From an uncultured Bacillales bacterium (GTDB taxonomy: Bacteria; Bacillota; Bacilli; Tepidibacillales; Tepidibacillaceae): 64,000 nucleotides of DNA. The stretch lies in the NCBI GenBank assembly GCA_964551195.1, contig CAZKBI010000004.1:4189-68188 (forward strand), in the 5' to 3' direction. Positions 727 through 64,000 of this stretch are shown one piece after another. Under the pieces are notes generated by a model. The model saw only the letters and a list, made by a program, of their open reading frames with translations. It was not told where the DNA came from and did not search any database. The position numbers and the translations under genes are program-made. Positions within the stretch are counted from its first letter, which is position 1. Every line of letters starts with the position of its first letter.

Positions 727-750
727 TCACCCCCGAATTAATTCCTAGTA

Positions 751-906
751 AAATAAAAAAGTGTGGACATATTACGCCCACACTCAATAATCAAAAGTTA
801 TATTAACCCAACGCCAGTAGCAGATAAGGTGAGAAGCGGGCGCTTCTGCTTTATTCAATATTTTATTTCACTTATGAAGTTTAACACGATAAATGTTAAC
901 TGTCAA
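751..906 (-). promoter_or_regulatory. infC operon promoter plus L20-type ribosomal-protein leader with attenuator terminator
   Basis: On the minus strand, TTGACA (906-901), a 17-nt spacer and TAAACT (883-878) lie just after the thrS stop. A GAAGCGCCCGCTTC hairpin follows, then a GTGTGGGCG...CCACAC stem (783-761) and a T-run (760-751) immediately before infC. This layout matches the L20-controlled infC leader of Bacilli; the assignment is from position and structure only. Confidence 0.55.
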
Positions 907-47195: not shown

Positions 47196-47234
47196 ATAAA
47201 AAAATAAAAGATAGAAGAGTTTCCTCTTCTATCT
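47196..47234 (-). terminator. Strong rho-independent terminator ending the Tad-like operon
   Basis: Minus strand: an 11-bp stem AGATAGAAGAG/CTCTTCTATCT (47234-47209) overlaps the TAG stop and is followed by TTTTATTTTTTT. Confidence 0.8.
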
Positions 47235-47720
47235 TAAAATCGACTTCCATTCATGCGCAGCAACCACAATCACATCTGAAACCGACCTCGTTAAACTGTA
47301 GTCGGGACGACCGGCATTGATTGTCACGATTACAGTCGGCTCTCTAATAAATATCTCAAAGCCAATGTTGGGTTTGCTTAAAAAGTATGGATAAACCGTG
47401 TTTAGATCATCAAAATACTCAACCGTATAATCAATCTGCTCCAACCAATAATAGTTGCGTAGTGGTAACAAATTATTACTAAGACTCATGTTCTCTTTCA
47501 GAATCCTACGGGCGGCTAAATCACCTTCCTGCTGGTTAAATACCAAATAACCATTCTTATAGTGTTCTGATAAGGTAAATTGTGCTGCCGCTGCTGCTGA
47601 CTCTTCGGCAATATACTTTAATAGATGAAGCTGTTCTTGGTGCTTATTATAATCGGCTTGAAAAGTTGTAAAAATTGCGAAAACGATAAATAAAGAAAAA
47701 CCAATAATATAAGACTTCAT
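47229..47720 (-). CDS. TadE-like / pseudopilin-like protein with N-terminal hydrophobic anchor
   Basis: 163 aa. The N-terminus MKSYIIGFSLFIVFAIFTTF is paralogous to that of the preceding gene. Its ATG overlaps the upstream stop (TAATG). The call rests on position after the pilin-like ORF. Confidence 0.45.
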   Translation of the reverse strand: MKSYIIGFSLFIVFAIFTTFQADYNKHQEQLHLLKYIAEESAAAAAQFTLSEHYKNGYLVFNQQEGDLAARRILKENMSLSNNLLPLRNYYWLEQIDYTVEYFDDLNTVYPYFLSKPNIGFEIFIREPTVIVTINAGRPDYSLTRSVSDVIVVAAHEWKSILR

Positions 47721-48130
47721 TAAGGCAGCAACTCACTGGGTACTTCGCCGCTAATGATATATTCGTAACTATTCGCCTGATCACTGATTCCGTAAAATAT
47801 ATTTGCAGCAATAACCTTATCAATCGGTATACCAACTTCAAAATAGATCATTTCTCTTTCATCAAAGTAATCTAAACGATATTTAGGAGTCCTTGTTGCT
47901 TCGATTCTTATATCAGATGGTTCAACTTTTAGCTTAGACGTTATTTGCATCCTTATCTCATCTAAATTTGATTGTTTAAAGTAACCGTCAGTTCTAGCTT
48001 TTTGTGCGGCATTATAGACAATATTATTAGTGGTCTGGATTTTATAATGATTAACCTGGTTAATTGACCATTGTAAAGGGAAAAAAATTAATACTAGGAA
48101 AACTGCAAAGCCAACTATATATTCTTTCAT
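47720..48130 (-). CDS. TadE-like / pseudopilin-like protein with N-terminal hydrophobic anchor
   Basis: 136 aa with N-terminus MKEYIVGFAVFLVLIFFPLQ. The size and position are typical of minor-pilin genes in Gram-positive Tad loci. Confidence 0.45.
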   Translation of the reverse strand: MKEYIVGFAVFLVLIFFPLQWSINQVNHYKIQTTNNIVYNAAQKARTDGYFKQSNLDEIRMQITSKLKVEPSDIRIEATRTPKYRLDYFDEREMIYFEVGIPIDKVIAANIFYGISDQANSYEYIISGEVPSELLP

Positions 48131-48145
48131 TACATCATCCTCATT

Positions 48146-48304
48146 TTATTCAGGGACGGTTATATTCTGAATCTCATTAAGCATTTTTCCAGCTATTGCA
48201 TCAGCTCCTGATTTTAAGCTGTTTGAATCAGCACCGAGTACGAGTGTATTAGCAATAAATACTCCTAAAAGTACAAGCGCAACAGTAACTATTAATTGTT
48301 TCAT
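48146..48304 (-). CDS. Unannotated 52-aa pilin-like / small hydrophobic protein (candidate Flp-type subunit)
   Basis: Below the ORF-track size cutoff. The ATG at 48304 lies 8 nt after AGGTGA and the stop is TAA at 48146-48148. The product is MKQLIVTVALVLLGVFIANTLVLGADSNSLKSGADAIAGKMLNEIQNITVPE. It occupies the slot where Tad loci carry flp, between tadC and tadE. Confidence 0.45.
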   Translation of the reverse strand: MKQLIVTVALVLLGVFIANTLVLGADSNSLKSGADAIAGKMLNEIQNITVPE

Positions 48305-48323: not shown

Positions 48324-49208
48324 CTAACTAATATAAAACTGAATATTATTAATCGCATCGATATAGTAAACAATAATCACAAAATTCAACATAATCACAA
48401 CACTCGTTGCAATCACACTAAAATAAATTAAGTTGCTTCTATTTTCATTAGCGATTATCCGATTCGTCTCACGCTCCTTTCTAATGACTTGAAGTAACAA
48501 GTCGATTTGAGTTACTAGCTCCTTAGTGGTTAAGTCATCCAGTCTACCTAAAACTGTAGCCAGTTCATGCGACACGCGTGTATCTATTGCATCCGCAAAT
48601 AAATTAATCGCTTCATTCATCTGGCCCAAATTCCATAATGAAATCATCTTACCCATAACCGCTTTAGTCTGATTAGCTGATTTATAAAGTGAATTCATTA
48701 TATAATCTGAACTGTACTCTTTGTAATTGCTAGTAACCGCAAGATTCTTTAAGTGTAATGTTAGTTTATATAATTCGAAATCAATACTTCTTTTACGTTT
48801 GTTTTCATAGAGCATTAGTATATATTTATATAGAGTTTTTCTGCCAAGAATTGTTTCTCGAGGGAAGAATACAAAATATAGGAAAATTGCAAAGATAAAC
48901 AGCATTTTTAAAGTTGAGCCACTACTTGTGCCTAACATTAACAATCCTAGTGTGATGGCAACAATTAACAAAATGTTATGAATAAGTAGATAATAGTTTG
49001 TATTAATTCTGATCTTAACCAATTTACTACCTGCATCAACATTGTCAGAAGTTAGTAATTTCTGATATCTATCTTTAATAACCGAAACAGCGTGTCTTGA
49101 ATTATCCACTGCTAACCGCTTTCTACCAAGGTAGCGCGAATTGAGAATTAAAACGGATAATAAGGACAGAATTGTAATTATGATTGAATAAATAATGTTT
49201 ATACTCAT
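48324..49208 (-). CDS. TadC-like platform protein (T2SS-F family, divergent)
   Basis: 294 aa with N-terminal, central and C-terminal TM segments around a helical cytoplasmic domain. It is the second of two tandem genes of this type after the ATPase. Confidence 0.55.
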   Translation of the reverse strand: MSINIIYSIIITILSLLSVLILNSRYLGRKRLAVDNSRHAVSVIKDRYQKLLTSDNVDAGSKLVKIRINTNYYLLIHNILLIVAITLGLLMLGTSSGSTLKMLFIFAIFLYFVFFPRETILGRKTLYKYILMLYENKRKRSIDFELYKLTLHLKNLAVTSNYKEYSSDYIMNSLYKSANQTKAVMGKMISLWNLGQMNEAINLFADAIDTRVSHELATVLGRLDDLTTKELVTQIDLLLQVIRKERETNRIIANENRSNLIYFSVIATSVVIMLNFVIIVYYIDAINNIQFYIS

Positions 49209-49215
49209 TTTATAT

Positions 49216-50196
49216 TTAAAAATCTCTTTTCTCTTTTTTTAGAAATACATAAATCCCACTGTTTATTACCATAAATATAAGAATCAATAGAAAAAATTTT
49301 AAACCAAGGCTGTTGAAGAATTGATATTCAATATATTTCGAAAAACCCAAACCTATTACCCCAACCATTGCATATACGCTTATCAAGTAAACTGCAGGCG
49401 TAACGTATTTAATCATAAATAGAGCTTCATTATTCTGTTGGCGATCCTTCTCATAAATACTGTTCATTGTTTTTGATTCTTCTAAAATATCTTCAAGTGC
49501 CTGAAAAATATTTTCTCCGTAAACCAAGCTATATTTTAAATTTTCTGATAATATCTCTGACAAGTTCGTTTTTAAGGCATAATTGAAATTATTAACTGAA
49601 TCTATTATTTCAGCATCTGAATCGGCTTGTTTTATTGCCAGACTTAATTTAAGTAACGCTTTCTGTGAGTGAGGTGACTTTGTCAAGCGAGGAATCGTTT
49701 GGTCAATCGCCTCATACATATTACAATGATTAATTCGATATTGACTTATCAGTTCAATTAATAATTGCTCCAGTTCATTGCTCCCCGCTGATCTAATCGT
49801 CTGTAATCTAAGCAATAGAATAAAATATGGTATAGCCCCAAATATAATAGAAATGAATATAATCATAAGAATACTAATGCCGGCTTGATAGAGAAATAAT
49901 GCTGTAGATAAGGCAATTGCAATTGAAAAGAACAGTATTATGTATAGATTTCTTTTTCTGCTAATACCATAACTTGTCTCTGCTAGTAGCAAAAACCTGC
50001 CGTAGTAGTTGTTCCTAAATGTTTTTTTACCACTAGATTGAAGTAGCTTATATCTGTTATAAATATTCATTTTGTTATAAAGCTGATGTAAAAATGGAAG
50101 ACAGGCCAGGATAAATCCAATTAATAAAAACAAAGAAAATCCGATATATACAAGCACACTTATAATTTCGTTCACCTTAATTACTCCTTCTTTCAT
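49216..50196 (-). CDS. TadB-like platform protein (T2SS-F family, divergent)
   Basis: 326 aa with the same topology. Its start overlaps the stop of the upstream ATPase (ATGA). Confidence 0.55.
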   Translation of the reverse strand: MKEGVIKVNEIISVLVYIGFSLFLLIGFILACLPFLHQLYNKMNIYNRYKLLQSSGKKTFRNNYYGRFLLLAETSYGISRKRNLYIILFFSIAIALSTALFLYQAGISILMIIFISIIFGAIPYFILLLRLQTIRSAGSNELEQLLIELISQYRINHCNMYEAIDQTIPRLTKSPHSQKALLKLSLAIKQADSDAEIIDSVNNFNYALKTNLSEILSENLKYSLVYGENIFQALEDILEESKTMNSIYEKDRQQNNEALFMIKYVTPAVYLISVYAMVGVIGLGFSKYIEYQFFNSLGLKFFLLILIFMVINSGIYVFLKKEKRDF

Positions 50197-51620
50197 CGAC
50201 CATAAAACGGCCTAGTAATATTTTCTCCGACCATCGGATTTTTCTGCGCCAATCTGGCAAGTTCATTCTTGAAAGTCAAAAACGCAGCACTCTCTTCTTG
50301 CATAGCAATCTCCTCTTTATCAATACCAATGTCATATTTGTAATGCCAATCGTCTGTTTGGTAATTATACTTAACAATCTGATGGACGGTAATTTGTCTA
50401 GCAGCAGTATCGTAACGTAATTCATATACGCCCTTCAATCGTTTTTTCGAACGGTCCTGTAATTGGATAAATTCATACAAATAATGATATCCCTTGGCTA
50501 GCTTAACCATCGTAGATTGCAAGTCGCCACCAAATTTTGCAATAATTTCATTGGCAGCATCGTATACAAAATCTGCAGCATCTGTAGAATGAAATGTGCT
50601 TTTAACCCTACGGGTACCCTTTGTAGTTATTTTTAACGCTAAATTTAGAGCGACCGCATCACGCGCTTCAGCAAGTATGAAATAATCAGCATCCGAACGC
50701 ATCAGGGACTTTGTAATCTCATTAAGTCTTTCACCGTCGGCAATGATTTGTATTATGGGCGCATCCGGCATTATTTGATGAAGTGGGATCTCTGGATCAG
50801 TCTCAATTAGGACACCCTCCAAACTTCTATCCTCATAACTTTGCCAAGTCTCAAGAAACGTCGTTTTTCCACTCCTCACCGGCCCTATAAAGTTAACATT
50901 ATAACCAATCTTGATTTTAGCTTTAAGTAAGGGAATTATTTCCTCGGGAATAGTTCCCCGTCTTGCCTGCTCCTCAAAAGTTAAATGTTCAATAATATAT
51001 TTTCGAAATATAATTGTTGGTTCCTTTGCATCTTCAAAAATAGTAATACGTGTGCCATCTAGCATGTATACCTCAGCGTATTTATTGCTTAAATGAATCT
51101 CCGGATTGCGTAATAGGAGTGCTTTCCTCAATTGCTTTAAACGCTCCGCAGTTATTCGTTGTTGTTGGAGTTGCATCTTTCCATTTATTAAAAAAAATAT
51201 TTTTTCGCCAATGATTTTGGCAGAGCTACTTTCTTTTAAAATCTTCCATGGGGCAATAGCCGCTAAACCCCAGTTTTCATGAAATATTGCTGTAGTAAGA
51301 TTTTCATACCAAGATGGATACCAGGCGTTCTGTAAATTTCGTTTTTTTAAGTAAATTTCTATTTTAGAAATAAAATAATTCGACTCCGCCGAATAACCAA
51401 TAATTGCCCGCTTTTGATAATGTAACAATTGATCGGCTGTAGAATTATCCTTCCCCGATTCCATATCCCAACCCTCTAAAAAATTCTTGCTAACTTCTTT
51501 ACAGAGTTTCTGAAAACTTAACAGCTTCTGACTGTTGCTTAAGTTCTTTTCAACCTCTTCTTGCTTTGCTTCAGCCTCTTCTAAATATTTATTTAAAGAA
51601 AAACGAGTTTCTATCATCAC
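50193..51620 (-). CDS. Divergent CpaF/VirB11-like secretion ATPase (second ATPase of the locus)
   Basis: 475 aa. Has Walker A GPVRSGKTT, an Asp-box-like LIETDPEI, and a Walker B-like ADYFILAEARD. TTKGTRRVKSTFHS replaces the canonical His box. It sits in the canonical tadA position (tadZ-tadA-tadB-tadC). Confidence 0.65.
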   Translation of the reverse strand: MMIETRFSLNKYLEEAEAKQEEVEKNLSNSQKLLSFQKLCKEVSKNFLEGWDMESGKDNSTADQLLHYQKRAIIGYSAESNYFISKIEIYLKKRNLQNAWYPSWYENLTTAIFHENWGLAAIAPWKILKESSSAKIIGEKIFFLINGKMQLQQQRITAERLKQLRKALLLRNPEIHLSNKYAEVYMLDGTRITIFEDAKEPTIIFRKYIIEHLTFEEQARRGTIPEEIIPLLKAKIKIGYNVNFIGPVRSGKTTFLETWQSYEDRSLEGVLIETDPEIPLHQIMPDAPIIQIIADGERLNEITKSLMRSDADYFILAEARDAVALNLALKITTKGTRRVKSTFHSTDAADFVYDAANEIIAKFGGDLQSTMVKLAKGYHYLYEFIQLQDRSKKRLKGVYELRYDTAARQITVHQIVKYNYQTDDWHYKYDIGIDKEEIAMQEESAAFLTFKNELARLAQKNPMVGENITRPFYGR

Positions 51621-52780
51621 ATTCCACCTAGACTGTTCATCTTGCGTCTAATTAATCCTTCCCTTGTTTCAAGACGATAGGGTAGTTTTATTTGCATAGA
51701 AATAATCTTACATAAATAATCAATTTGGTTATTATAATTTTTTAGACCATAATGTAGTAGTGTTTTTTGTTCTATCTCTGCTTTCCATCCATAAAAGTCC
51801 GCATGGGGAACCACGGTTGCTAGGATTGTCCCGTACAAACTGCCTAATTGCTGACTAGTATACATAAAATCAGAGTGTATATATTTATTAACTACCAACA
51901 TGAATTGTTTAACATCAATGCCTAAGCCGTTTAGCACCTGAGATTCAATTCTTTTATACTTTTTGCGTACCGCCTCTTGCTGAGTTACGACTAAATATCT
52001 GGTTTTAGCTAGTTGAATTGAAGCTATGGCCAAGCCAGAATCAATCTCGCCCCCAGCATCAATCAACACCAGGTCAAACTTGTTAGCTGCCATTTTTATT
52101 AAGTCTTTTATGTGCTTGGGATGAAACAGCTTGGCATCCGGAGAATATTTTACCCCAGGCAAGATGTATAGGCTCTCGACTTCTTTTATACAGGCATTCA
52201 CTAATTCATCTTCTTCCAAAATATTGTTGAATAATTTAATTTTCAGGTTATCAATACCTGTTTCTAGGTCATTCTTCACATACTCCATACTCGGATTACT
52301 GTTTAGACAGAGTAACCCAACACTTACATCAGTGTGCTTAGCAAGCATTTCAGCGACGCTATGAGACAACATCGTCGTTCCAACTTTGTTATCTGCACCA
52401 AAAAAAGTTATTACATTATCCAATTCATTTGCTTCAGAGGACCTTATTTTTAAAATTTTATCAACTATTTTCTCTTCGGTAAGCTTGCTGGAGATTAATT
52501 CAATCCCACTTAACCGACAGATGACTTTCATATTATTCAGTATATTAATATCGTAATCATAAGAATAGATAAAAAATACTTTGCTCTTTTTATTATTCAT
52601 ATTTTTATTTCCCGCAACTGTTGCTTGAACTTTTTCATAACTAATCATTTTTTCAGATATTACAATAATTTCCGCGTCTTCATGACCACTGATTACATCT
52701 GTCTCTTCCACTTCAATATTGCTCATTGTCCGTAATATATTAGCTACTTTACTATTTTCCGCTATGATCAGAATTTTCAT
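51617..52780 (-). CDS. TadZ/CpaE-like protein (atypical receiver domain + degenerate ParA/MinD ATPase domain)
   Basis: 387 aa. The N-terminal receiver-like fold lacks the acidic pocket (IIAEN, IIVISEKM). The central region FFGADNKVGTTMLSHSVAEMLA is a deviant P-loop, followed by a ParA-like LVLIDAGG block. Confidence 0.6.
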   Translation of the reverse strand: MKILIIAENSKVANILRTMSNIEVEETDVISGHEDAEIIVISEKMISYEKVQATVAGNKNMNNKKSKVFFIYSYDYDINILNNMKVICRLSGIELISSKLTEEKIVDKILKIRSSEANELDNVITFFGADNKVGTTMLSHSVAEMLAKHTDVSVGLLCLNSNPSMEYVKNDLETGIDNLKIKLFNNILEEDELVNACIKEVESLYILPGVKYSPDAKLFHPKHIKDLIKMAANKFDLVLIDAGGEIDSGLAIASIQLAKTRYLVVTQQEAVRKKYKRIESQVLNGLGIDVKQFMLVVNKYIHSDFMYTSQQLGSLYGTILATVVPHADFYGWKAEIEQKTLLHYGLKNYNNQIDYLCKIISMQIKLPYRLETREGLIRRKMNSLGGM

Positions 52781-53451
52781 TATTCAACCCCCTCTACATA
52801 TAAAATAATAATTTTATCCCCAACCCTAACAATCTCAGTTAATTGTGCTATTTCATCTAAATCTAAAACTACAGAAACTTCGGCAATTATTCCTGTGCCA
52901 TCCATTCGATCTCTTTTACCCGTGCTGACTATTTCCCGATTCATACTATCTTTCACATATGCAACCTCAGTTTCAAAAAGGACTCCGCTTGTGCTTTCTT
53001 GTTGACCAAATCTATAAAGATACACTTTATCCTGTCTTCGCAAGGTATTAGGCATCGAATAGATCCAATCACTCGGTATTCTAATAATATATTGATCTAC
53101 TGCTAATTTGACCTCAGTTGTAGAGAAGTATCTAGGATGGAGTAAGCTTCCTTGCGGTATATAGGAAATCGATTCCAATCCAACAATTTCACTAATATCG
53201 TCAATAGCACCAGTAAAAATCTTGCTTTTTTCAAAACTCTGGTAAGTAAGTAACGACTCTTCAATTAGTACTCCCCGATCGATATCTTGGTTTAACACCA
53301 ATCTCTCCTCATACAGAAAATGCTCGCGTCCAGCTGTTTCCCAGAACCAAATAAGAGTTAACACTATCACGATTAGAACTAGACCAAGTGCTGGTATGAG
53401 ATAACTTAAAAAACTTCTTAACTTGCTTCTAATATTATTTAATTCCCGCAA
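52780..53451 (-). CDS. CpaB/RcpC-like protein (N-terminal TM + SAF domain)
   Basis: 223 aa with one TM segment, then a SAF-like segment (VLNQDIDRGVLIEESLL...IVGLESISYIPQGSLLHPRYF). The TTG start follows a GAAGGTGA RBS. Confidence 0.6.
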   Translation of the reverse strand: MRELNNIRSKLRSFLSYLIPALGLVLIVIVLTLIWFWETAGREHFLYEERLVLNQDIDRGVLIEESLLTYQSFEKSKIFTGAIDDISEIVGLESISYIPQGSLLHPRYFSTTEVKLAVDQYIIRIPSDWIYSMPNTLRRQDKVYLYRFGQQESTSGVLFETEVAYVKDSMNREIVSTGKRDRMDGTGIIAEVSVVLDLDEIAQLTEIVRVGDKIIILYVEGVE

Positions 53452-53455
53452 AAAA

Positions 53456-55156
53456 TCACCTTCTTAAGAAACTAGATTTATATTCTTTACGTGAGCTATT
53501 AACTTTAGCTCTATCCATCACAATCAGATCTGCAGCTATTCCGCTTAAAGCACCTTTAAGTAGCTCACCAACATTAGTATATTCATAGAGAATATCTCCG
53601 TTAAAAGTTGCACGATGGATATGTGATAGTTCGATGTTTGGACAGAAATGAATTGGTGCAAAATCAAATAATTTCAATAATTCTCGCTTGGGCACACTTT
53701 CTGTCCAGTTATTTAATATTAGTTTAACCTTTACACCCTCTTTCACTAACTCACACAACTTGGATAAGCGACGTAAATTCTGTGCAATATTAATTAATAT
53801 TGGATCTATAACCACTAGTAAACAATCTACATTCTTTAAAGCATTTTCAATTGCCGGGTGCTCTATGTAATTTCCAACGTCGATTAATGAAATACTATTC
53901 TTGCGTGATGAGTAAAGAAGATTCAACATCATCATGTCATCCCAGTTCTCCTCCTTTATTAAGGGCCGTCGGGGATCTACGAGAGTCCACGTAATCCCTT
54001 TAGCTGAGTACATTTTATTTTTTAATAGTGGTTTTCCTTCATACAGTTCATGGACCGTACTATAAAAGCCTTGTTCCTCCTTGATTAGATTCCCTAGTCT
54101 TTCTACACCAAGATAATCAAAGAGATATGGACTAAAAGGTATTTCAACAACATTAGGAACTATACTTAATTCACTAATATATTTTGCTAAGTTAATTGTT
54201 ATAAAAGTTGAGCCGGCACACTTTGAAAGTGAGCAGATCATGACCTGCGATATATTTTCTACCAAACTGAACTGATCCATTTCTGGATTTGCAATAATTT
54301 CTTCTTTAGTCGATTTATCGTTTAGCAGCTTTGTGTGGTCATGGTAATAAGTATTTGCAATTTCTAGCTCTCTTTGTACATCTGCGACATTCTGATAGCG
54401 GGTTTCTGGATCATACATAAGTGATTTATTTACGATCGAATATATTATGATTGGTAGGTCATTACGAAGGTGTTGAAGGGGTTTTCGTACACTGTAGTAG
54501 TGCTTTCCTCCACTAAATAGATAATAGAGTAAGGCACCAAGAGAATAAATATCAGATCGATGATCAGTATCTCTTAACCCAAGTTGTTCTGGTGCAGCAT
54601 ACCTCACTGTCCCTAATTGTGCTGTATCAAGTTCTCCTTCCAGAATATAATCCTTGGCAATTCCGAAATCGATTAATTTAATGTTATCTTGGTCGTCTAT
54701 TAAAACATGCTCAGGTTTGAGATCTCGATAGATAACAGGTGCTGGTAACTCATTATGTAAATAATTGAACACCTCACATAACTGCATTGCATATTTTATA
54801 ATCTTTATCTCAGAAAGAACTTGTCCACTCTCTACAATCTCTTGTAAACTGTTACCCTCGATATAATCCATAACTAAATAGGAACGCCTAATATCTTTTT
54901 CGTAATAGTAGTCAATAATTTTCGGCAGGTATGGGTGTTCAAGTTTTGCTAAGAGTTTAGCCTCTCTAATAAAATTGTCCCCCTCCATTCGCTTATTCTC
55001 TACCTCTTTAATAGCCCAACACTTGCCTTCTATTCTCAAATCTTCGGCATAATACACTATTCCCATAGCACCATGGCCAATTATGGAGGTTATTTTATAT
55101 CTTTTATTAAAGATCTCACCAATTGTTAGTACACCTCGATTATCAATAACCATCAC
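53456..55156 (-). CDS. Hanks-type Ser/Thr protein kinase fused to a degenerate ParA/TadZ-like domain
   Basis: Residues about 15-270 form the kinase: GHGAMG Gly-loop, AIK lysine, YRDLKPEH catalytic loop, DFG, and APE in GTVRYAAPE. Residues about 303-545 are ParA/MinD-like: VMICSLSKCAGSTFITINLA, SLIDVG, CLLVVIDP, KLILNNW. Confidence 0.8.
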   Translation of the reverse strand: MMVIDNRGVLTIGEIFNKRYKITSIIGHGAMGIVYYAEDLRIEGKCWAIKEVENKRMEGDNFIREAKLLAKLEHPYLPKIIDYYYEKDIRRSYLVMDYIEGNSLQEIVESGQVLSEIKIIKYAMQLCEVFNYLHNELPAPVIYRDLKPEHVLIDDQDNIKLIDFGIAKDYILEGELDTAQLGTVRYAAPEQLGLRDTDHRSDIYSLGALLYYLFSGGKHYYSVRKPLQHLRNDLPIIIYSIVNKSLMYDPETRYQNVADVQRELEIANTYYHDHTKLLNDKSTKEEIIANPEMDQFSLVENISQVMICSLSKCAGSTFITINLAKYISELSIVPNVVEIPFSPYLFDYLGVERLGNLIKEEQGFYSTVHELYEGKPLLKNKMYSAKGITWTLVDPRRPLIKEENWDDMMMLNLLYSSRKNSISLIDVGNYIEHPAIENALKNVDCLLVVIDPILINIAQNLRRLSKLCELVKEGVKVKLILNNWTESVPKRELLKLFDFAPIHFCPNIELSHIHRATFNGDILYEYTNVGELLKGALSGIAADLIVMDRAKVNSSRKEYKSSFLRR

Positions 55157-55160
55157 CCCC

Positions 55161-56282
55161 TTAACTTATTAAAGTTCTAACTCGATACTCAGTTGTCGCA
55201 AGTTTAATCCTGTCCCCCTCTCCTATTGGATACAACTTATTTGCATCTAATTCAACCCCATTTAGAAAAGAACCATTCTTTGAATCTAAATCCTTAATTA
55301 AATAACCATTAATATCTCTAATTATTTCGAGATGCACTCTTGAAATTACATTGGAATCTTCATAATGATTTACTATGTTTTTGTTTCTTCCAATGATGAA
55401 ATTTGGCTGATCTAAATCTATTCTTTCCGTCTGTCCATCGTGATCTTTTTCTAAATAAAACAAAGGAACAGCCTTTAGCAGATGACGAGTCTCGGCTAGT
55501 TTTTCTTCCTTATCTTCATCTTCGCTAACATTAATTAAAAGGTCTTTTCCAACATAGCTACTAATCGTTTCATGTCTACCCTTCGAAAAAGAAATTCGCG
55601 GCCAATTAAAGATCCTGTTCCTTTTTTCGTTATCACTTACTCTATTGTTCTCTGCTTTATCCGATGTTACAATCGTCTCTTTCCCGTCTACACTTGATTC
55701 ACCGTGGTTTTTACTGTCAACTCTTCTATAAAGTTCTTCTATCGTAAATTCGCAACTATCAAAATAATCTATAACATTATTATAAAAATTTAGTTCTACC
55801 CCATGACTCTCTTTAAAAATATCGATAAACAATTGTTTAAATTCATTCGCCATACTGGCTTCTTTATTAAGCTCTTTTAATGGCAAGTAGATTAAGTGTG
55901 GTTTATTTTTGTCGATATCAATATAAATTAGCGGTAATTTCATTATGTATTTATTAACATCTAATAAGTACTTGCTACTATTTCTTATTACATTGATTAT
56001 TTCTAGATAAACTCCTCGCATCAGGTCCCCACCATATTGCTCCGTCATTAAGTAATTATTTAATAATTTATAGCCTCTCACATCATAATAGAACTTAATA
56101 TTTAAATTGAATTCTTCAAGTACTAAAGGCACATGTCCTAACAAACTATTTGCGCTCAACATTTCTGCTTGAACTCCTATTATCTCTTCAGCTCTTAGCC
56201 CTTCCGCCCTATCAATCACCAGGCTATTATAATCCCCGTTTAAATAATTTATGCGCAGGTTATATACTTCTCCGACCAACAA
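55161..56282 (-). CDS. FHA-domain protein with uncharacterised N-terminal domain
   Basis: The C-terminal roughly 90 aa form an FHA domain (FIIGRN ... ISRVHLEI ... DLDSKNGSFLNG). I could not assign the N-terminal roughly 200 aa. The TTG start (56282 or 56279) follows an AGGGGGAG RBS embedded in the 3' end of cpaF. Confidence 0.8.
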   Translation of the reverse strand: MLVGEVYNLRINYLNGDYNSLVIDRAEGLRAEEIIGVQAEMLSANSLLGHVPLVLEEFNLNIKFYYDVRGYKLLNNYLMTEQYGGDLMRGVYLEIINVIRNSSKYLLDVNKYIMKLPLIYIDIDKNKPHLIYLPLKELNKEASMANEFKQLFIDIFKESHGVELNFYNNVIDYFDSCEFTIEELYRRVDSKNHGESSVDGKETIVTSDKAENNRVSDNEKRNRIFNWPRISFSKGRHETISSYVGKDLLINVSEDEDKEEKLAETRHLLKAVPLFYLEKDHDGQTERIDLDQPNFIIGRNKNIVNHYEDSNVISRVHLEIIRDINGYLIKDLDSKNGSFLNGVELDANKLYPIGEGDRIKLATTEYRVRTLIS

Positions 56283-57504
56283 AAGCTCCCCCTAACCCCG
56301 CTTGCTTTAGCTTGTCTATCCCTAGAAGGCTGTTGCCAGTTGCTTGCAGCTCACCAAAGAGTCCACCCTGCTCATCTAATCCAGTCTCAACGAAACGATA
56401 TAGTCTATTTAATTGAATTTCATTATTAACCATTCCAGTAATCTCGCTTATTTCAATTATTCGACGCGTGTTATCCCTTAATTTCGCCAAATGAATAATT
56501 ATGTCTATCGCCGAACTAATTTGTTTGCGAATGGCAACAATCGGAATATTAGCTCCCCTTAGAACCATTACCTCTAACCTACTCAGCATATCCTCGGCAC
56601 TGTTCCCGTGGCCTGTAGAGATAGAGCCATCATGGCCTGTATTCATTGCTTGTAGCATATCTAATGCTTCATGGCCCCGCACTTCTCCAACAACGATGCG
56701 ATTGGGTCGCATTCTAAGGGAGGCTCTAATTAAATCGCTGATTGTTATCTCGCCCTTGCCCTCAGTATTCGCATTGCGAATCTCTAGCCTGACAAGATTC
56801 TCAATATTCGTTATTTGTAGCTCTGCAGAATCTTCAATTGTAATAATTCTTTCTTTATCTGGGATAAAATTTGACAGCACATTTAAGAAGGTCGTTTTGC
56901 CAGAGCCTGTTCCACCGCTGATAAAAATATTGTATTTTGCCTTTACCAGCAGATCTAGAAAAATGGCAGCTTCTTCTGACAATGTATTATTTTCAATTAA
57001 ATGGTCAATTGTAAGTGGGTTCTTAGGGAATTTACGAATTGTCATTGTTGGACCATCCAATGCGAGGGGAGGAAGGACGATATTTACTCGGGACCCGTCC
57101 TTCATTCTTGCATCTACAATAGGGGAGGATTGGTTTACTACTCTATTTACCTTAGAAACAATCATCTGAATTATATCTTCTAGCCGTTCTTTACTTTCAA
57201 ACTCTACTCTTGTTTTTTTTATTTCACCATTCTTTTCAACAAAAACTTGATTATACCCGTTAACCATTATCTCGGTTATCTCATCTTTTTCAATTAAGGG
57301 CTGTAGAACATCATATCCTCTAAACGAATTAAAAATGCTATCCGCTAAATCGATTTTCTCCTTTGTCGATAGGACAATTGCGGTTGCGTATTCGAACACT
57401 TTCTCTTCAATATATAGACGAATCTCTTCATCAGTAACTAGGTATAAATCATTTATCTGCTCACGTATCTGATTTCTTAATAACTTGCTTCTTTCAACAT
57501 TCAT
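56260..57504 (-). CDS. CpaF/TadA-family type IV pilus/secretion ATPase (canonical)
   Basis: 414 aa with Walker A GGTGSGKTT, Asp box IITIEDSAEL, Walker B RIVVGEVRG, and His box MNTGHDGSISTGH. Confidence 0.9.
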   Translation of the reverse strand: MNVERSKLLRNQIREQINDLYLVTDEEIRLYIEEKVFEYATAIVLSTKEKIDLADSIFNSFRGYDVLQPLIEKDEITEIMVNGYNQVFVEKNGEIKKTRVEFESKERLEDIIQMIVSKVNRVVNQSSPIVDARMKDGSRVNIVLPPLALDGPTMTIRKFPKNPLTIDHLIENNTLSEEAAIFLDLLVKAKYNIFISGGTGSGKTTFLNVLSNFIPDKERIITIEDSAELQITNIENLVRLEIRNANTEGKGEITISDLIRASLRMRPNRIVVGEVRGHEALDMLQAMNTGHDGSISTGHGNSAEDMLSRLEVMVLRGANIPIVAIRKQISSAIDIIIHLAKLRDNTRRIIEISEITGMVNNEIQLNRLYRFVETGLDEQGGLFGELQATGNSLLGIDKLKQAGLGGAFVGRRSI

Positions 57505-57652
57505 TTCCCTATTCCTATCTACATAAATCTAATTACAAATTATAGTTTTATTGTAAAACTTTGACATCGTTCTACTATAATAAATCATAAATTAATATTT
57601 GTCACTAGATAAAAACAACTTATTTCAAATAAATATTATCCGCTAATGGACA

Positions 57653-57686
57653 ACAAAAAACGACACGGCAGCTAGCTACCGTGTCG
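57653..57686 (-). terminator. Rho-independent terminator upstream of the Tad-like operon (ends the preceding gene)
   Basis: Minus strand: CGACACGG...CCGTGTCG stem (57686-57661) followed by TTTTTTG. Confidence 0.75.
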
Positions 57687-63317: not shown

Positions 63318-63355
63318 CCTTCAATTTTATTACTATTTTCTATGGCACATATTCG

Positions 63356-63441
63356 TGGTGCCGATGGCCGGACTCGAACCGGCATGGAAATTATCCGTCG
63401 CATTTTGAGTGCGGTGCGTCTGCCAGTTCCGCCACATCGGC
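63356..63441 (-). tRNA. tRNA-Leu (anticodon CAA)
   Basis: The reverse complement folds as a cloverleaf: acceptor GCCGATG/CATCGGC, loop CT-CAA-AA, long variable arm, GGTTCGAGTCC T-arm, encoded CCA. Confidence 0.9.
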
Positions 63442-63460
63442 AAAGTGTTTTTATAACAAA

Positions 63461-63537
63461 TGGCGCGCCCTGCAGGATTCGAACCTGCGACCTTCTGATT
63501 CGTAGTCAGACACTCTATCCAGCTGAGCTAAGGGCGC
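63461..63537 (-). tRNA. tRNA-Arg (anticodon ACG)
   Basis: GCGCCCTTAGCTCAGCTGGATAGAGT...; anticodon loop CT-ACG-AA; GGTTCGAATCC T-arm; encoded CCA. Confidence 0.9.
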
Positions 63538-63545
63538 AAAGTAAA

Positions 63546-63634
63546 TGGTGCCGAGAACCGGAATCGAACCGGTACGGTAGTCACCTACCGCAGGATTTTA
63601 AGTCCTGTGCGTCTGCCAATTCCGCCACCCCGGC
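63546..63634 (-). tRNA. tRNA-Leu (anticodon UAA)
   Basis: GCCGGGGTGGCGGAATTGGCAGACGC...; loop CT-TAA-AA; long variable arm; encoded CCA. Confidence 0.9.
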
Positions 63635-63646
63635 ACATTATTTTAT

Positions 63647-63721
63647 TGGAGGCGGCAACCGGATTTGAACCGGTGAATAAAGGTTTTGCAGACCTTCGCC
63701 TTACCACTTGGCTATGCCGCC
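63647..63721 (-). tRNA. tRNA-Cys (anticodon GCA)
   Basis: GGCGGCATAGCCAAGTGGTAAGGC...; loop CT-GCA-AA; encoded CCA. Confidence 0.9.
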
Positions 63722-63755
63722 ATTAGATAGATATTGATACGGCACTCAAAAAAAT

Positions 63756-63830
63756 TGGAGCGGACGAGGAGATTCGAACTCCCGACCCTCGCCTTGGCAA
63801 GGCGATGCTCTACCACTGAGCCACGTCCGC
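63756..63830 (-). tRNA. tRNA-Gly (anticodon GCC)
   Basis: GCGGACGTGGCTCAGTGGTAGAGC...; loop TT-GCC-AA; encoded CCA. Confidence 0.9.
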
Positions 63831-63844
63831 ATATTAAATTAAAA

Positions 63845-63918
63845 TGGCAGGGGTGGTAGGAATCGAACCCACACTAACGGTTTTGGAGACCGCTGTTCTG
63901 CCATTGAACCACACCCCT
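63845..63918 (-). tRNA. tRNA-Trp (anticodon CCA)
   Basis: AGGGGTGTGGTTCAATGGCAGAAC...; loop CT-CCA-AA; encoded CCA. Confidence 0.9.
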
Positions 63919-63922
63919 AAAA

Positions 63923-64000
63923 TGGTGGTGGGGGCAGGATTTGAACCTGCGAAGCTTCCGCAGCGGATTTACAGTCCGCCCCATTTGACCACTTTGGTAC
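63923..64000 (-). tRNA. tRNA-Tyr (anticodon GUA), 5' end cut by window edge
   Basis: The 3' part ...GGCGGACTGTAAATCCGC has loop CT-GTA-AA, a long variable arm, GGTTCAAATCC and CCACCA. About 7 nt of the 5' acceptor lie outside the window. Confidence 0.85.

Follow-up and report, generated by a model that had tools for sequence, protein, structure and literature searches.

The window, a 64,000-nt stretch of DNA from an uncultured Bacillales bacterium (GCA_964551195.1, CAZKBI010000004.1), carries an 11-gene operon that is, as judged from its gene content, a divergent Tad-like system, and within it a gene that fuses a Ser/Thr kinase to a TadZ-like domain. The operon has a hairpin at either boundary, all of its genes lie on the minus strand, and its packing is tight (1-23 nt overlaps or 4-nt gaps), which suggests translational coupling. 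On the upstream side, the strong terminator-like hairpin of the neighboring gene (57661-57686) precedes two sigma-70-like promoter matches (57539..57605, minus strand) ahead of the first operon gene, which reach only 10/12 of the consensus and are no more numerous than expected from shuffled sequence.

The first operon gene (56260..57504) encodes a canonical secretion ATPase of the CpaF/TadA type with 414 aa, hereafter ATPase 1 (Pfam T2SSE, E=1.3e-56; 293 bits against the TadA family model TIGR03819, under its cut-off of 373), and overlaps by 23 nt with a gene for a 373-aa protein (55161..56282) composed of a DUF6382 (E=1.1e-17) and an FHA domain (E=4.2e-13). The FHA domain keeps the phosphothreonine-binding residues GR, SRVH (SxxH), and NG, and the protein is presumed to be a phosphothreonine reader. 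Its stop codon lies 4-7 nt ahead of the start of the kinase gene. A type VII secretion (T7SS) locus, a candidate prompted by the DUF6382-FHA protein, was rejected, as 0 of the 10 operon products scanned with Pfam and NCBIfam match T7SS families.

Downstream of the fusion gene, a CpaB/RcpC-like SAF protein of 223 aa (52780..53451; SAF, E=5.9e-4; TIGR03177 pilus_cpaB, E=2.1e-4) has an N-terminal transmembrane helix at residues about 16-36. It is followed by a second TadZ-like paralog of 387 aa (51617..52780), whose N-terminal region, by eye, is proposed to be receiver-like. The original prediction had pointed to this ParA-like ORF with GADNKVGTT, two genes downstream of the kinase, and its matches to MinD models (E about 2e-5) and to MinD chains in the PDB (E=1.6e-4) support that assignment. 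The next gene (50193..51620) encodes a divergent T2SSE-family ATPase of 475 aa, ATPase 2 (E=7e-6), with an intact Walker A (GPVRSGKTT) and matches to ComGA, FlaI and PilT that are all weak.

The remaining gene products are candidate platform and pilin components, assigned by position and hydrophobicity with no Pfam match. Two polytopic membrane proteins are candidates for a TadB-like (326 aa; 49216..50196) and a TadC-like platform (294 aa; 48324..49208); the former, with its hydrophobic segments, occupies the same place in all related loci, and its ortholog in locus L009 is a weak T2SSF match, while the latter is identified by hydrophobicity and conserved position. A pilin-like ORF of 52 aa with a hydrophobic N-terminus (48146..48304) has a counterpart of 45-52 aa in the corresponding slot of L001, L006, L007, L017, and L018. 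Two proteins of 136 and 163 aa (47229..48130), neither with a Pfam match, have hydrophobic N-termini and a conserved position and are minor-pilin/TadE-like candidates. No prepilin peptidase was found in the operon, which ends at a terminator-like hairpin with a 12-bp stem followed by a T-run (47208..47235, minus strand).

The fusion ORF itself spans 53456-55156, the coordinates originally given, lies on the minus strand, and measures 566 aa from a GTG. The true start is likely the ATG at 55153, giving probably 565 aa, because an SD-like AAGGGGG lies ahead of this ATG and the database twin P0001 is called at 565 aa. The protein is organized as a Hanks kinase domain (residues about 20-270; 54347..55099), a linker that is little conserved and varies in length in the alignment (residues about 271-302; 54251..54346), a TadZ-like domain with an atypical ParA/MinD fold (residues about 303-544; 53525..54250), and a basic C-terminal tail, KSSFLRR (53459..53479), that may be a membrane-targeting sequence.

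The Kinase Domain and Its Catalytic Loop

The case that the N-terminal part of the fusion is a Hanks-type Ser/Thr kinase domain is strong, with a Pfam Pkinase match over residues 20-225 at E=4.7e-44 (151.2 bits, cut-off 31.7). The kinase signatures originally predicted are all present on the minus strand at mapped positions: GHGAMG (residues 27-32; 55061-55078), AIK including K50 (55007-55015), DFG (residues 163-165; 54662-54670), and APE (residues 188-190; 54587-54595). The alphaC Glu is E65, the HRD Asp (read here as YRD) is D145 and the DFG Asp is D163. In an alignment of 27 relatives, E65, R144, D145, K147, D163-G165, P189/E190, and R253 are invariant, and K50 and the Asp of DIYSLG are invariant or nearly so. 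The activation loop carries a conserved D-T-x-x-[LIM]-G-T in which D177 is invariant and T178 and T183 occur in at least 90% of these relatives, a pattern that would suit the hydrophobic preference of FHA domains at pT+3.

Hydropathy and profile searches agree with the earlier statement that the protein lacks a transmembrane segment and PASTA domain. Its top Kyte-Doolittle 19-mer scores 1.63 and maps to VVIDP, a strand buried in the C-terminal domain, the Pfam scan returned no PASTA repeats, and the PknB_PASTA model NF033483 matches the kinase part only (175 bits vs a cut-off of 450).

The catalytic loop reads YRDLKPEH (residues 143-150; 54707..54730, minus strand), with His150 at the position of the usual metal-binding Asn. 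The predicted Asn-to-His exchange is therefore present, but it is restricted to the clade of the window: Asn occupies this position in 126 of the 135 kinases collected, His is found only in the window, in P0001-P0006 and in one unrelated kinase, and the His150 clade comprises the window and relatives at ≥62% identity, every more distant fusion protein having Asn. In textbook kinase chemistry this Asn is important, and Asn171 of PKA binds the second Mg ion; His is nonetheless able to ligate divalent metals, and CASK is an active kinase though it has no catalytic-loop Asn, both of which speak against reading the protein as a pseudokinase. Probably, His150 changes the use of metal or lowers activity and does not abolish the predicted activity.

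Were the protein a pseudokinase scaffold, if only in the His150 clade, it would transfer no phosphate and would act in the machine as a structural part or interaction module, like the pseudokinase domain of EssB/YukC in T7SSb. The replaced metal-binding Asn would fit such a role, as would the phosphatase search, in which no PP2C phosphatase was found in the operon or among the genes directly flanking the syntenic locus L001, and EssB is a precedent in Gram-positive secretion machines (cited in PMC11217815). We consider this unlikely, given that the VAIK Lys, HRD Asp, DFG Asp, alphaC Glu, catalytic-loop Lys, and APE are all conserved family-wide, that the His is uniform within its clade and not variable, and that the adjoining FHA reader is retained with its phosphothreonine-binding residues intact. 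The original prediction had named an inactive pseudokinase that does not interact with the other locus products as one of the outcomes that would count against it; in our sequence tests, the Lys/Asp/Asp triad is invariant over the 27 relatives.

A C-Terminal Domain With the ParA/MinD Fold

The C-terminal half has no match in Pfam, including CbiA and AAA_31, and only a weak one to the BcsQ model (E=0.011, residues 304-486), while a single-sequence phmmer search against the PDB returned only a spurious SH3-like match, so that profiles were needed. A sequence profile of the domain reaches the PDB entry 3ea0 at E=4e-6 with the whole domain covered. An AlphaFold2 model built on a 24-sequence alignment (pLDDT 85.3, pTM 0.85, with low pLDDT for the first residues on the linker side) also finds 3ea0 as its best Foldseek match (E=2e-10, TM 0.68/0.75, 21% identity); FlhG, MinD and Soj, and also BcsQ, rank next, with all matches at E 2e-10 to 1e-7 and TM 0.6-0.78. 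Model, structure search and profile thus agree on 3ea0, in line with the fold that the original prediction had proposed, and the C-terminal half is confidently modeled as a ParA/MinD/TadZ fold. A relationship to the 387-aa paralog of the same operon is detected by hhalign against the family of the fusion C-terminal domain (probability 86.5%, E=4.5e-6), a link that covers the C-terminal half of the domain only and requires profile-profile comparison, BLASTP of the domain against this ORF giving no match.

The P-loop-like motif LSKCAGSTF (residues 310-318; 54203..54229, minus strand) has Ser at the position of the P-loop Lys, and SKCAGST aligns with KGGDGGS of 3ea0 and SPSIG(K/M)TF of Wzc. The original prediction described this P-loop as decayed; the absence of Lys stands, but it is no private decay of this protein, the Lys-less P-loop being the norm of the family. 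At the Lys position, Ser or Ala occurs in 96 of 100 representatives in which the motif was found, and the residues seen family-wide are S, A, T or C, with K in 0/100. In the 27-relative alignment G315, D426 and N482 do not vary and at least 90% of the sequences have D451; D426 (in LIDVG), D451 and N482 sit at the expected strand ends of the ParA/MinD-type model.

Across the family of the C-terminal domain, the last 20 residues have a mean net charge of +4.7, and tails that are basic and hydrophobic recur. The excess of these tails in hydrophobic moment is marginal (0.605 vs 0.567 in shuffles), a signal too weak to support an amphipathic membrane anchor, and the tail of the window's own protein is very short.

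Distribution of the Family and Conserved Gene Order

To delimit the family we relied on exhaustive searching, which yielded 207 cluster representatives of the C-terminal domain at E<=1e-3; a word-indexed homology search gave 0 matches with the C-terminal half and 2 with the profile, reflecting a limitation of the index and not an absence of homologs. Among 90 relatives Pfam recognizes Pkinase in 13, CbiA in 10 and AAA_31 in two. Kinase motifs occur in 16 of 149 representatives (about 11%), while most representatives carry a receiver-like N-terminal domain, the layout of TadZ, so that, as read from the sequences, the kinase occupies the place of the receiver domain in about 11% of the family. 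In the model of one kinase-less relative, P0271, a linker connects a (beta-alpha)5 N-domain to a ParA-like domain, and the only PDB entry that aligns with both of its domains is TadZ of E. rectale, 3fkq (427 columns). In a neighbor-joining tree of 163 domain sequences the kinase-bearing members are spread over 15 clades, a method too crude for counting fusion events.

Hosts of the fusion family include uncultured Bacillales/Bacillaceae, Tepidibacillus, and Paenibacillus. The domain combination had originally been called unfamiliar; it is recurrent in Bacillales and so not unique, but literature searches returned no relevant account of a kinase joined to TadZ/CpaE or of TadZ/CpaE phosphorylated on Thr. 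A GTDB genome scan returned 0 loci with the whole protein as query and seven with a narrower alignment.

The link between the kinase and a Tad-like machine, which the original prediction had drawn from this locus, is backed by a gene order conserved in several lineages. The lineages of P0005, P0008, and P0013, at 34-64% full-length identity, share the order of ATPase, DUF6382-FHA protein, fusion, SAF protein, TadZ-like protein, ATPase and platform genes. A tad-type gene order around the fusion is kept in L001, L005, L007, L009, and L012; in L001, L009, and L012 the DUF6382-FHA gene is also directly upstream, and in L005 and L007 the fusion stands at the head of the same core gene set. In Paenibacillus sp. 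SI8 the fusion adjoins a classical Tad locus whose final gene encodes a DUF6382-FHA protein. Altogether, fusion loci lie in or beside Tad-like gene sets in 6/7 distinct loci examined, and in these six the fusion always takes the slot held in related operons by the kinase-less TadZ-like protein.

This distribution bears on whether the protein is instead a general cytoplasmic signaling kinase that its ParA-like domain places at the membrane, pole or nucleoid, apart from any pilus machine, with the Tad-like neighborhood explicable as co-regulation or history. ParA/MinD-fold proteins do position varied cargos, a Paenibacillus subgroup at about 28% identity (P0024) encodes a fusion that adjoins no Tad genes, and the fusion loci L005, L007, and L016 lack both ATPase 1 and the FHA protein. 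The consistent Tad association and TadZ-like slot point the other way, however, as do the paralogy between the C-terminal domain and the TadZ-like protein of the same operon and the tight gene spacing, with the translational coupling that it suggests, and we regard a kinase unconnected to the machine as improbable.

A Proposed Place for the Kinase Within a Tad-Like Machine

We consider it reasonably probable that the fusion is a cytoplasmic Ser/Thr kinase docked on a Tad-like machine, where it would work with the FHA reader in the control of pilus assembly. By homology and genomic context we infer that the kinase is tethered to the assembly platform, as the original prediction had proposed; moreover, because the kinase is fused to a scaffold-type domain of the kind that ordinarily encircles the pilus motor, it would appear to be built into the machine that it regulates. 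The TadZ-like domain would then be the sensor or anchor module of a Hanks-type Ser/Thr kinase and would dock it on the pilus machine from the cytoplasmic side, and the fusion may sit among, or replace, the ring of TadZ/CpaE subunits around the motor ATPase. Nucleotide-dependent dimerization of the TadZ-like domain could pair two kinase domains for trans-autophosphorylation. The adjacent FHA protein could read the resulting phosphothreonines, whether these lie on the kinase or on a component of the machine, and may in turn couple to the canonical ATPase and gate pilus assembly or the choice of motor.

It is very improbable that the C-terminal domain has an enzymatic activity of its own, as a functioning ATPase or a relative of the BY-type tyrosine kinases, which would make the protein a dual kinase. 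In favor of such an activity, the P-loop region resembles the Walker A of Wzc, Etk, and CapB in local profile comparisons (E=1.4e-4 at best), and the Walker-B-like D426 and the invariant N482 at the NK/NR adenine-recognition position make nucleotide binding plausible. Against it, the P-loop Lys is missing in every member in which the motif was found, the tail (KEYKSSFLRR) has no tyrosine cluster, a combination on which we rejected a Wzc/CapB-type BY-kinase identity, and the similarity to Wzc covers about 57 residues only, the whole-domain matches being 3ea0, MinD, and FlhG.

A bolder extension of the docked-kinase reading, which we regard as doubtful, makes the fusion an assembly-state sensor in a Gram-positive Tad-like motor. 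Dimerization of the TadZ-like domains, dependent on nucleotide and set in a ring around the ATPase, would turn the kinase on, and its phosphothreonines would recruit the DUF6382-FHA adaptor and the canonical CpaF-like ATPase, such that the two ATPases might be swapped by a eukaryote-like phospho-switch, for example between extension and retraction or between assembly and secretion. In the clade of the window, the His-for-Asn loop might in addition retune the kinase to another metal or to Mg-independence.

Post-translational on/off control of pilus and secretion motors is poorly understood beyond a few Gram-negative models, and the role of TadZ/CpaE in Tad pili past localization is still being worked out. 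The locus described here presents a natural chimera, with a Ser/Thr kinase at the place of the TadZ receiver, encoded next to two motor ATPases and an FHA reader, and this chimera leads to the testable hypothesis that Bacillales Tad-like machines are governed from within by threonine phosphorylation. The conserved natural Asn-to-His variant of the catalytic loop also offers material for studies of metal dependence, and the family defined here comprises about 200 Lys-less ParA-like domains that have no Pfam model.

Comparison With Known Systems

By both structure and profile, the C-terminal domain is most like 3ea0, a ParA-family ATPase of Chlorobium tepidum that may be a TadZ-type domain and whose P-loop (KGGDGGS) likewise has no Lys. 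The solved chain of 3ea0 differs in comprising one domain only (about 245 aa) and no kinase, and in having generic MinD/CpaE-like, AAA_31, and CbiA matches in NCBIfam and Pfam, sub-threshold or at superfamily level, that the fusion domain does not share. MinD, FlhG and FleN have the common fold, with Foldseek E values near 1e-9 to 1e-10, and a C-terminal membrane-targeting helix, but they are active, partner-stimulated ATPases with both lysines in their deviant Walker A, and they are not kinase-fused.

With TadZ/CpaE, the protein that localizes Tad pili and rings their motor (TadZ of E. rectale, PDB 3fkq; CpaE of Caulobacter), the fusion shares a basic C-terminal tail and an atypical ATPase-type domain whose Walker A is variant, its kinase-less relatives share the two-domain layout of a receiver-like and a ParA-like domain, and its gene lies in an operon with CpaB-like and CpaF-like genes and with candidate genes for TadB/C-like proteins and small pilins. 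In E. rectale, TadZ binds ATP to dimerize despite its deviant P-loop motif (summarized in PMC13170226), CpaE dimers ring CpaF in situ (PMC13170226), and CpaE is predicted to bind the membrane by a C-terminal amphipathic helix (PMC13170226). The fusion differs from these proteins in that it has a complete Hanks kinase in place of the receiver-like N-domain, that its P-loop is SKCAGST and not KGG-type, with no AAA_31 or CbiA match, that the sequence profile of its C-terminal domain does not reach TadZ 3fkq, and that its operon has a separate TadZ-like paralog besides.

DUF6382-FHA proteins also accompany Ser/Thr kinases in T7SS variants of Bacillota, in sets of kinase, DUF6382-FHA protein and PPM phosphatase (TseD, TseJ, TseF; PMC11217815); some of these variants adjoin Tad genes, and one, TsfV, carries a TadZ-like receiver domain (PMC11217815). 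The likeness lies in the same DUF6382 and FHA architecture, encoded beside a Ser/Thr kinase within a secretion locus of Bacillota, whereas the kinases of those variants are membrane-anchored, have other C-terminal domains and belong to loci with EssC and WXG100 genes. The Kil system of Myxococcus is a Tad-like machine with FHA-domain proteins for which control by a signaling cascade has been proposed (PMC8460266), but this Gram-negative, secretin-bearing system joins its FHA domain directly to the ATPase and has no described fusion to a kinase (PMC8460266). The PpkA/Fha1/PppA module of the type VI secretion system (T6SS) likewise combines a Hanks kinase and an FHA protein in the operon of an ATPase-driven envelope machine, and its logic, cited in PMC8460266 and PMC11217815, makes assembly dependent on phosphothreonine. 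While PpkA is a transmembrane sensor kinase with a PP2C phosphatase, the fusion has no transmembrane segment or extracellular domain, no accompanying phosphatase was found, and its kinase is joined to the predicted scaffold domain of the machine.

Domain architecture and kinase activity

The minus-strand gene at 53456..55156 encodes a Hanks kinase fused to a TadZ-like C-terminal domain and lies in a Tad-like pilus operon; we hold both this architecture and its association with the machine with high confidence. The ORF spans 566 aa if the GTG start is used, but the start is more likely the ATG at 55153, one codon after the GTG and preceded by AAGGGGG, and the near-identical database protein P0001 is called at 565 aa. 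The motifs of the original prediction were all recovered: GHGAMG (residues 27-32), AIK including K50, YRDLKPEH (143-150), DFG (163-165) and APE (188-190) in the kinase half, and LSKCAGSTF (310-318) beyond it. Pfam Pkinase covers residues 20-225 (E=4.7e-44, 151 bits, cut-off 31.7), and the PASTA-kinase equivalog covers the kinase part alone, at 175 bits against a cut-off of 450. As had been proposed, the protein has no PASTA match and no hydrophobic segment fit for a TM helix, its Kyte-Doolittle maximum (19-mer, 1.63) coinciding with a strand buried inside the C-terminal domain.

Across 27 aligned full-length relatives (26-76% identity), E65 (alphaC Glu), R144-D145, K147, P148, D163-F-G, P189-E190, the alphaF Asp and R253 show no or almost no variation, and the activation-loop motif D-T-x-x-[LIM]-G-T is conserved. 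The kinase is predicted to be active by the usual Lys/Asp/Asp criterion, and among all the kinase features tested it departs from expectation only at the catalytic-loop Asn. His150 indeed occupies this metal-binding position and is shared by its clade, comprising the protein in the window, P0001 and the database relatives P0002-P0006 (62-76% identity), so it is neither an error nor a singleton. All fusion proteins more distant than this clade, including that of a Tepidibacillus decaturensis MAG, keep the Asn, as do 126 of the 135 kinases collected, in which His occurs outside the clade only once. That protein, P0084, is an unrelated membrane-anchored database kinase with DLG replacing DFG; it has His independently, so replacement of this Asn by His turns up sporadically among bacterial Hanks kinases. 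Most of the collected bacterial kinases have Tyr where the HRD motif has His, which is unremarkable. In PKA the equivalent residue, Asn171, binds the second Mg ion; CASK has no such Asn and is unusual among kinases in being Mg-independent. The His150 substitution probably changes metal use or turnover; that the kinase half is instead a pseudokinase serving as a structural module is unlikely given the otherwise complete set of conserved residues.

Operon and related loci

The fusion is gene 3 of 11 closely packed minus-strand genes, which are spaced by overlaps of 1-23 nt or gaps of 4 nt and bounded by terminator-like hairpins at both ends (57686-57661 and 47235-47208). Gene 1 (56260-57504) encodes a canonical CpaF/TadA-like ATPase (T2SSE, E=1.3e-56) and gene 2 a DUF6382+FHA protein that retains the pThr-binding residues GR, SxxH and NG in its FHA domain. 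Downstream of the fusion are a CpaB-like SAF protein with one TM helix (gene 4), a TadZ-like paralog of 387 aa (gene 5), a highly divergent T2SSE ATPase with an intact Walker A (gene 6, 50193-51620, E=7e-6), two polytopic membrane proteins (genes 7 and 8), a pilin-like ORF of 52 aa beginning MKQLIVTVALVLLGVFIANTLVLG... (gene 9, 48146-48304) and two proteins with hydrophobic N-termini (genes 10 and 11). Related loci have a gene for 45-52 aa at the position of the pilin-like ORF, which lacks the Flp G/xxxxEY processing motif; the operon contains no prepilin peptidase. A single operon thus carries two secretion ATPases, one canonical and CpaF-like and one divergent, and the CpaF-like ATPase was found solely in loci that also have the DUF6382-FHA gene.

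Between 47000 and 59000, G+C is 0.31-0.37 across most of the operon versus 0.38-0.45 in flanking housekeeping genes, a difference consistent with acquisition by transfer, although related MAGs have the locus in synteny. A 222-aa ORF antisense to the CpaF-like ATPase gene (56501-57169, plus strand) is almost certainly a shadow ORF. An L20-leader RNA element (749-857, minus strand) and a seven-tRNA array at the end of the window (63359-64000, minus strand), overlapped by an apparent ORF (63342-63668, plus strand), are ordinary chromosomal features.

Genome matches to the fusion come from uncultured Bacillales and Bacillaceae MAGs and Tepidibacillus, and named protein matches from Paenibacillus. 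The entire arrangement and its flanking genes are syntenic in relatives at 64-75% identity, and the trio of ATPase, DUF6382-FHA protein and fusion precedes the same core in two further lineages (L012 and L009, 34-45% identity), whose fusions retain the canonical catalytic-loop Asn. In L005 (Paenibacillus) and L007 the fusion comes first in the same core, without the upstream ATPase/DUF6382-FHA pair, and in Paenibacillus sp. SI8 it adjoins a classical Tad locus (AAA_31 TadZ, T2SSE, two T2SSF, Flp1_like, A24 peptidase) that closes with a DUF6382-FHA gene. In three loci a kinase-less relative takes the fusion's place at the head of the core, and all three lack an FHA gene. The alternative, that the ParA-like domain positions the kinase without involvement of the pilus machine, would suit the Paenibacillus subgroup P0024, where no Tad genes lie near the fusion; beside the recurrent linkage in the other loci, we regard this as improbable.

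In two of the kinase-less loci the first core gene is receiver-like. The core directly follows a relaxase and a type IV coupling protein in L006:1242-11509 (P0121) and a full Gram-positive-type conjugation T4SS (coupling protein, TrbL-like, TraC-like, VirB4-like) in L017:1-17159 (P0128), which suggests that conjugative elements of Bacillota carry a Tad-like pilus module.

The C-terminal domain

A Pfam scan of the C-terminal half gave no match, and BcsQ matched residues 304-486 weakly (E=0.011). Searched exhaustively with HMMER, a set of 1.84 billion cluster representatives yielded 207 relatives at E<=1e-3, of which 89 reach E<=1e-10. A word-indexed protein search missed essentially all of them, even a near-identical full-length protein (reported 100% identity), and its negatives should not be taken as absence for low-complexity or AT-rich-encoded domains such as this. 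The AlphaFold2 model (24-sequence alignment, pLDDT 85.3, pTM 0.85) has the ParA/MinD fold that had been anticipated: the best Foldseek match in the PDB is a Chlorobium tepidum ParA-family ATPase (3ea0; E=2e-10, TM 0.68/0.75, 21% identity), followed by FlhG, several MinD structures, Soj, FleN and BcsQ. Independently of the model, the sequence profile matches 3ea0 over the whole domain (E=4e-6).

The P-loop had been read as decayed. The Lys is indeed absent, Ser316 occupying its position (AGSTF versus IG(K/M)TF in Wzc and GGSCI in 3ea0), but this is no local decay: among the 100 of 149 family representatives with a detectable motif, the position holds Ser in 70, Ala in 26, Thr in 3, Cys in 1 and Lys in none, so the Lys-less P-loop, also seen in 3ea0, is a family trait. 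G315, D426 (LIDVG, Walker-B position) and N482 (NK/NR-type position) are invariant among the 27 relatives, and at least 90% of sequences have D451, which suggests that nucleotide binding is retained. The same profile matches Wzc-type BY-kinases locally, in the Walker A region, yet with Lys missing from every member where the motif was located, an enzymatically active or BY-kinase-like domain is very improbable.

Kinases are a minority in this family: Pkinase is found in 13 of 90 scanned relatives and kinase motifs in 16 of 149, while 10 of the 90 reach CbiA and two AAA_31. Most members have 390-460 aa and carry the domain at about residues 140-390. The model of one kinase-less relative, P0271 (42 sequences, pLDDT 83.5), begins with a (beta-alpha)5 receiver-like domain (1-90); a disordered linker leads on to the ParA-like domain, and a short helix forms the C-terminus. 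The sole PDB entry aligning with it across both domains (427 columns) is 3fkq, so the family shows the TadZ layout; this E. rectale protein is described as TadZ (PMC13170226). Judged by this model, the Hanks kinase occupies the place of the atypical receiver domain.

The second TadZ-like ORF of the operon (387 aa, GADNKVGTT) was likewise borne out, matching MinD models (E ~2e-5) and PDB MinD chains (E=1.6e-4). By hhalign it is a remote paralog of the fusion's C-terminal domain (probability 86.5%, E=4.5e-6, Walker-B region to tail). Both paralogs (tails at 53459-53479 and 51617-51670, minus strand) and most of the ~150 relatives end in strongly basic tails that include a few hydrophobic residues, such as KSSFLRR, SWLNRWIKR and PSFLSRFKRLG. 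The last 20 residues carry a mean net charge of +4.7, and the hydrophobic moment is barely higher than in shuffles (0.605 versus 0.567). The tail resembles the membrane-targeting helix of MinD and CpaE, and a role in membrane targeting is suggested.

Proposed mechanism and comparison with known systems

TadZ is described as binding ATP through a deviant Walker A and dimerising; in situ, CpaE dimers ring the CpaF motor, and a C-terminal amphipathic helix of CpaE is predicted to contact the membrane (PMC13170226). Ser/Thr kinases and PPM phosphatases accompany DUF6382-FHA proteins in Bacillota T7SS variants (PMC11217815), and the Tad-like Kil machine of Myxococcus is decorated with FHA proteins (PMC8460266). 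We favor, as the probable overall picture, a kinase docked by its TadZ-like domain and working with an FHA reader on the pilus machine. Docking would be at the motor or platform, and dimerisation of the TadZ-like domain would juxtapose the kinase domains for trans-autophosphorylation. More tentatively, with the chances somewhat short of even, the FHA protein would read a pThr from the conserved activation-loop motif or from a machine component, and the signal would gate assembly or determine which of the two ATPases is used.

The literature searched contains no account of a kinase fused to TadZ/CpaE, nor of TadZ/CpaE being phosphorylated on Thr, and databases name the fusion proteins only 'serine/threonine protein kinase'. 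A TadZ-like scaffold and kinase-FHA control of envelope machines are each known, and the fusion is a variant on both. The fusion is real, recurrent and testable, on grounds of sequence, predicted structure and genomic context. It falls outside the PASTA kinases, outside the canonical ParA/MinD ATPases because the P-loop Lys is missing, and outside TadZ proper because it lacks a receiver domain and matches no curated model. Of the known systems compared, it would work most like a TadZ/CpaE subunit bearing a PpkA-like signalling head.
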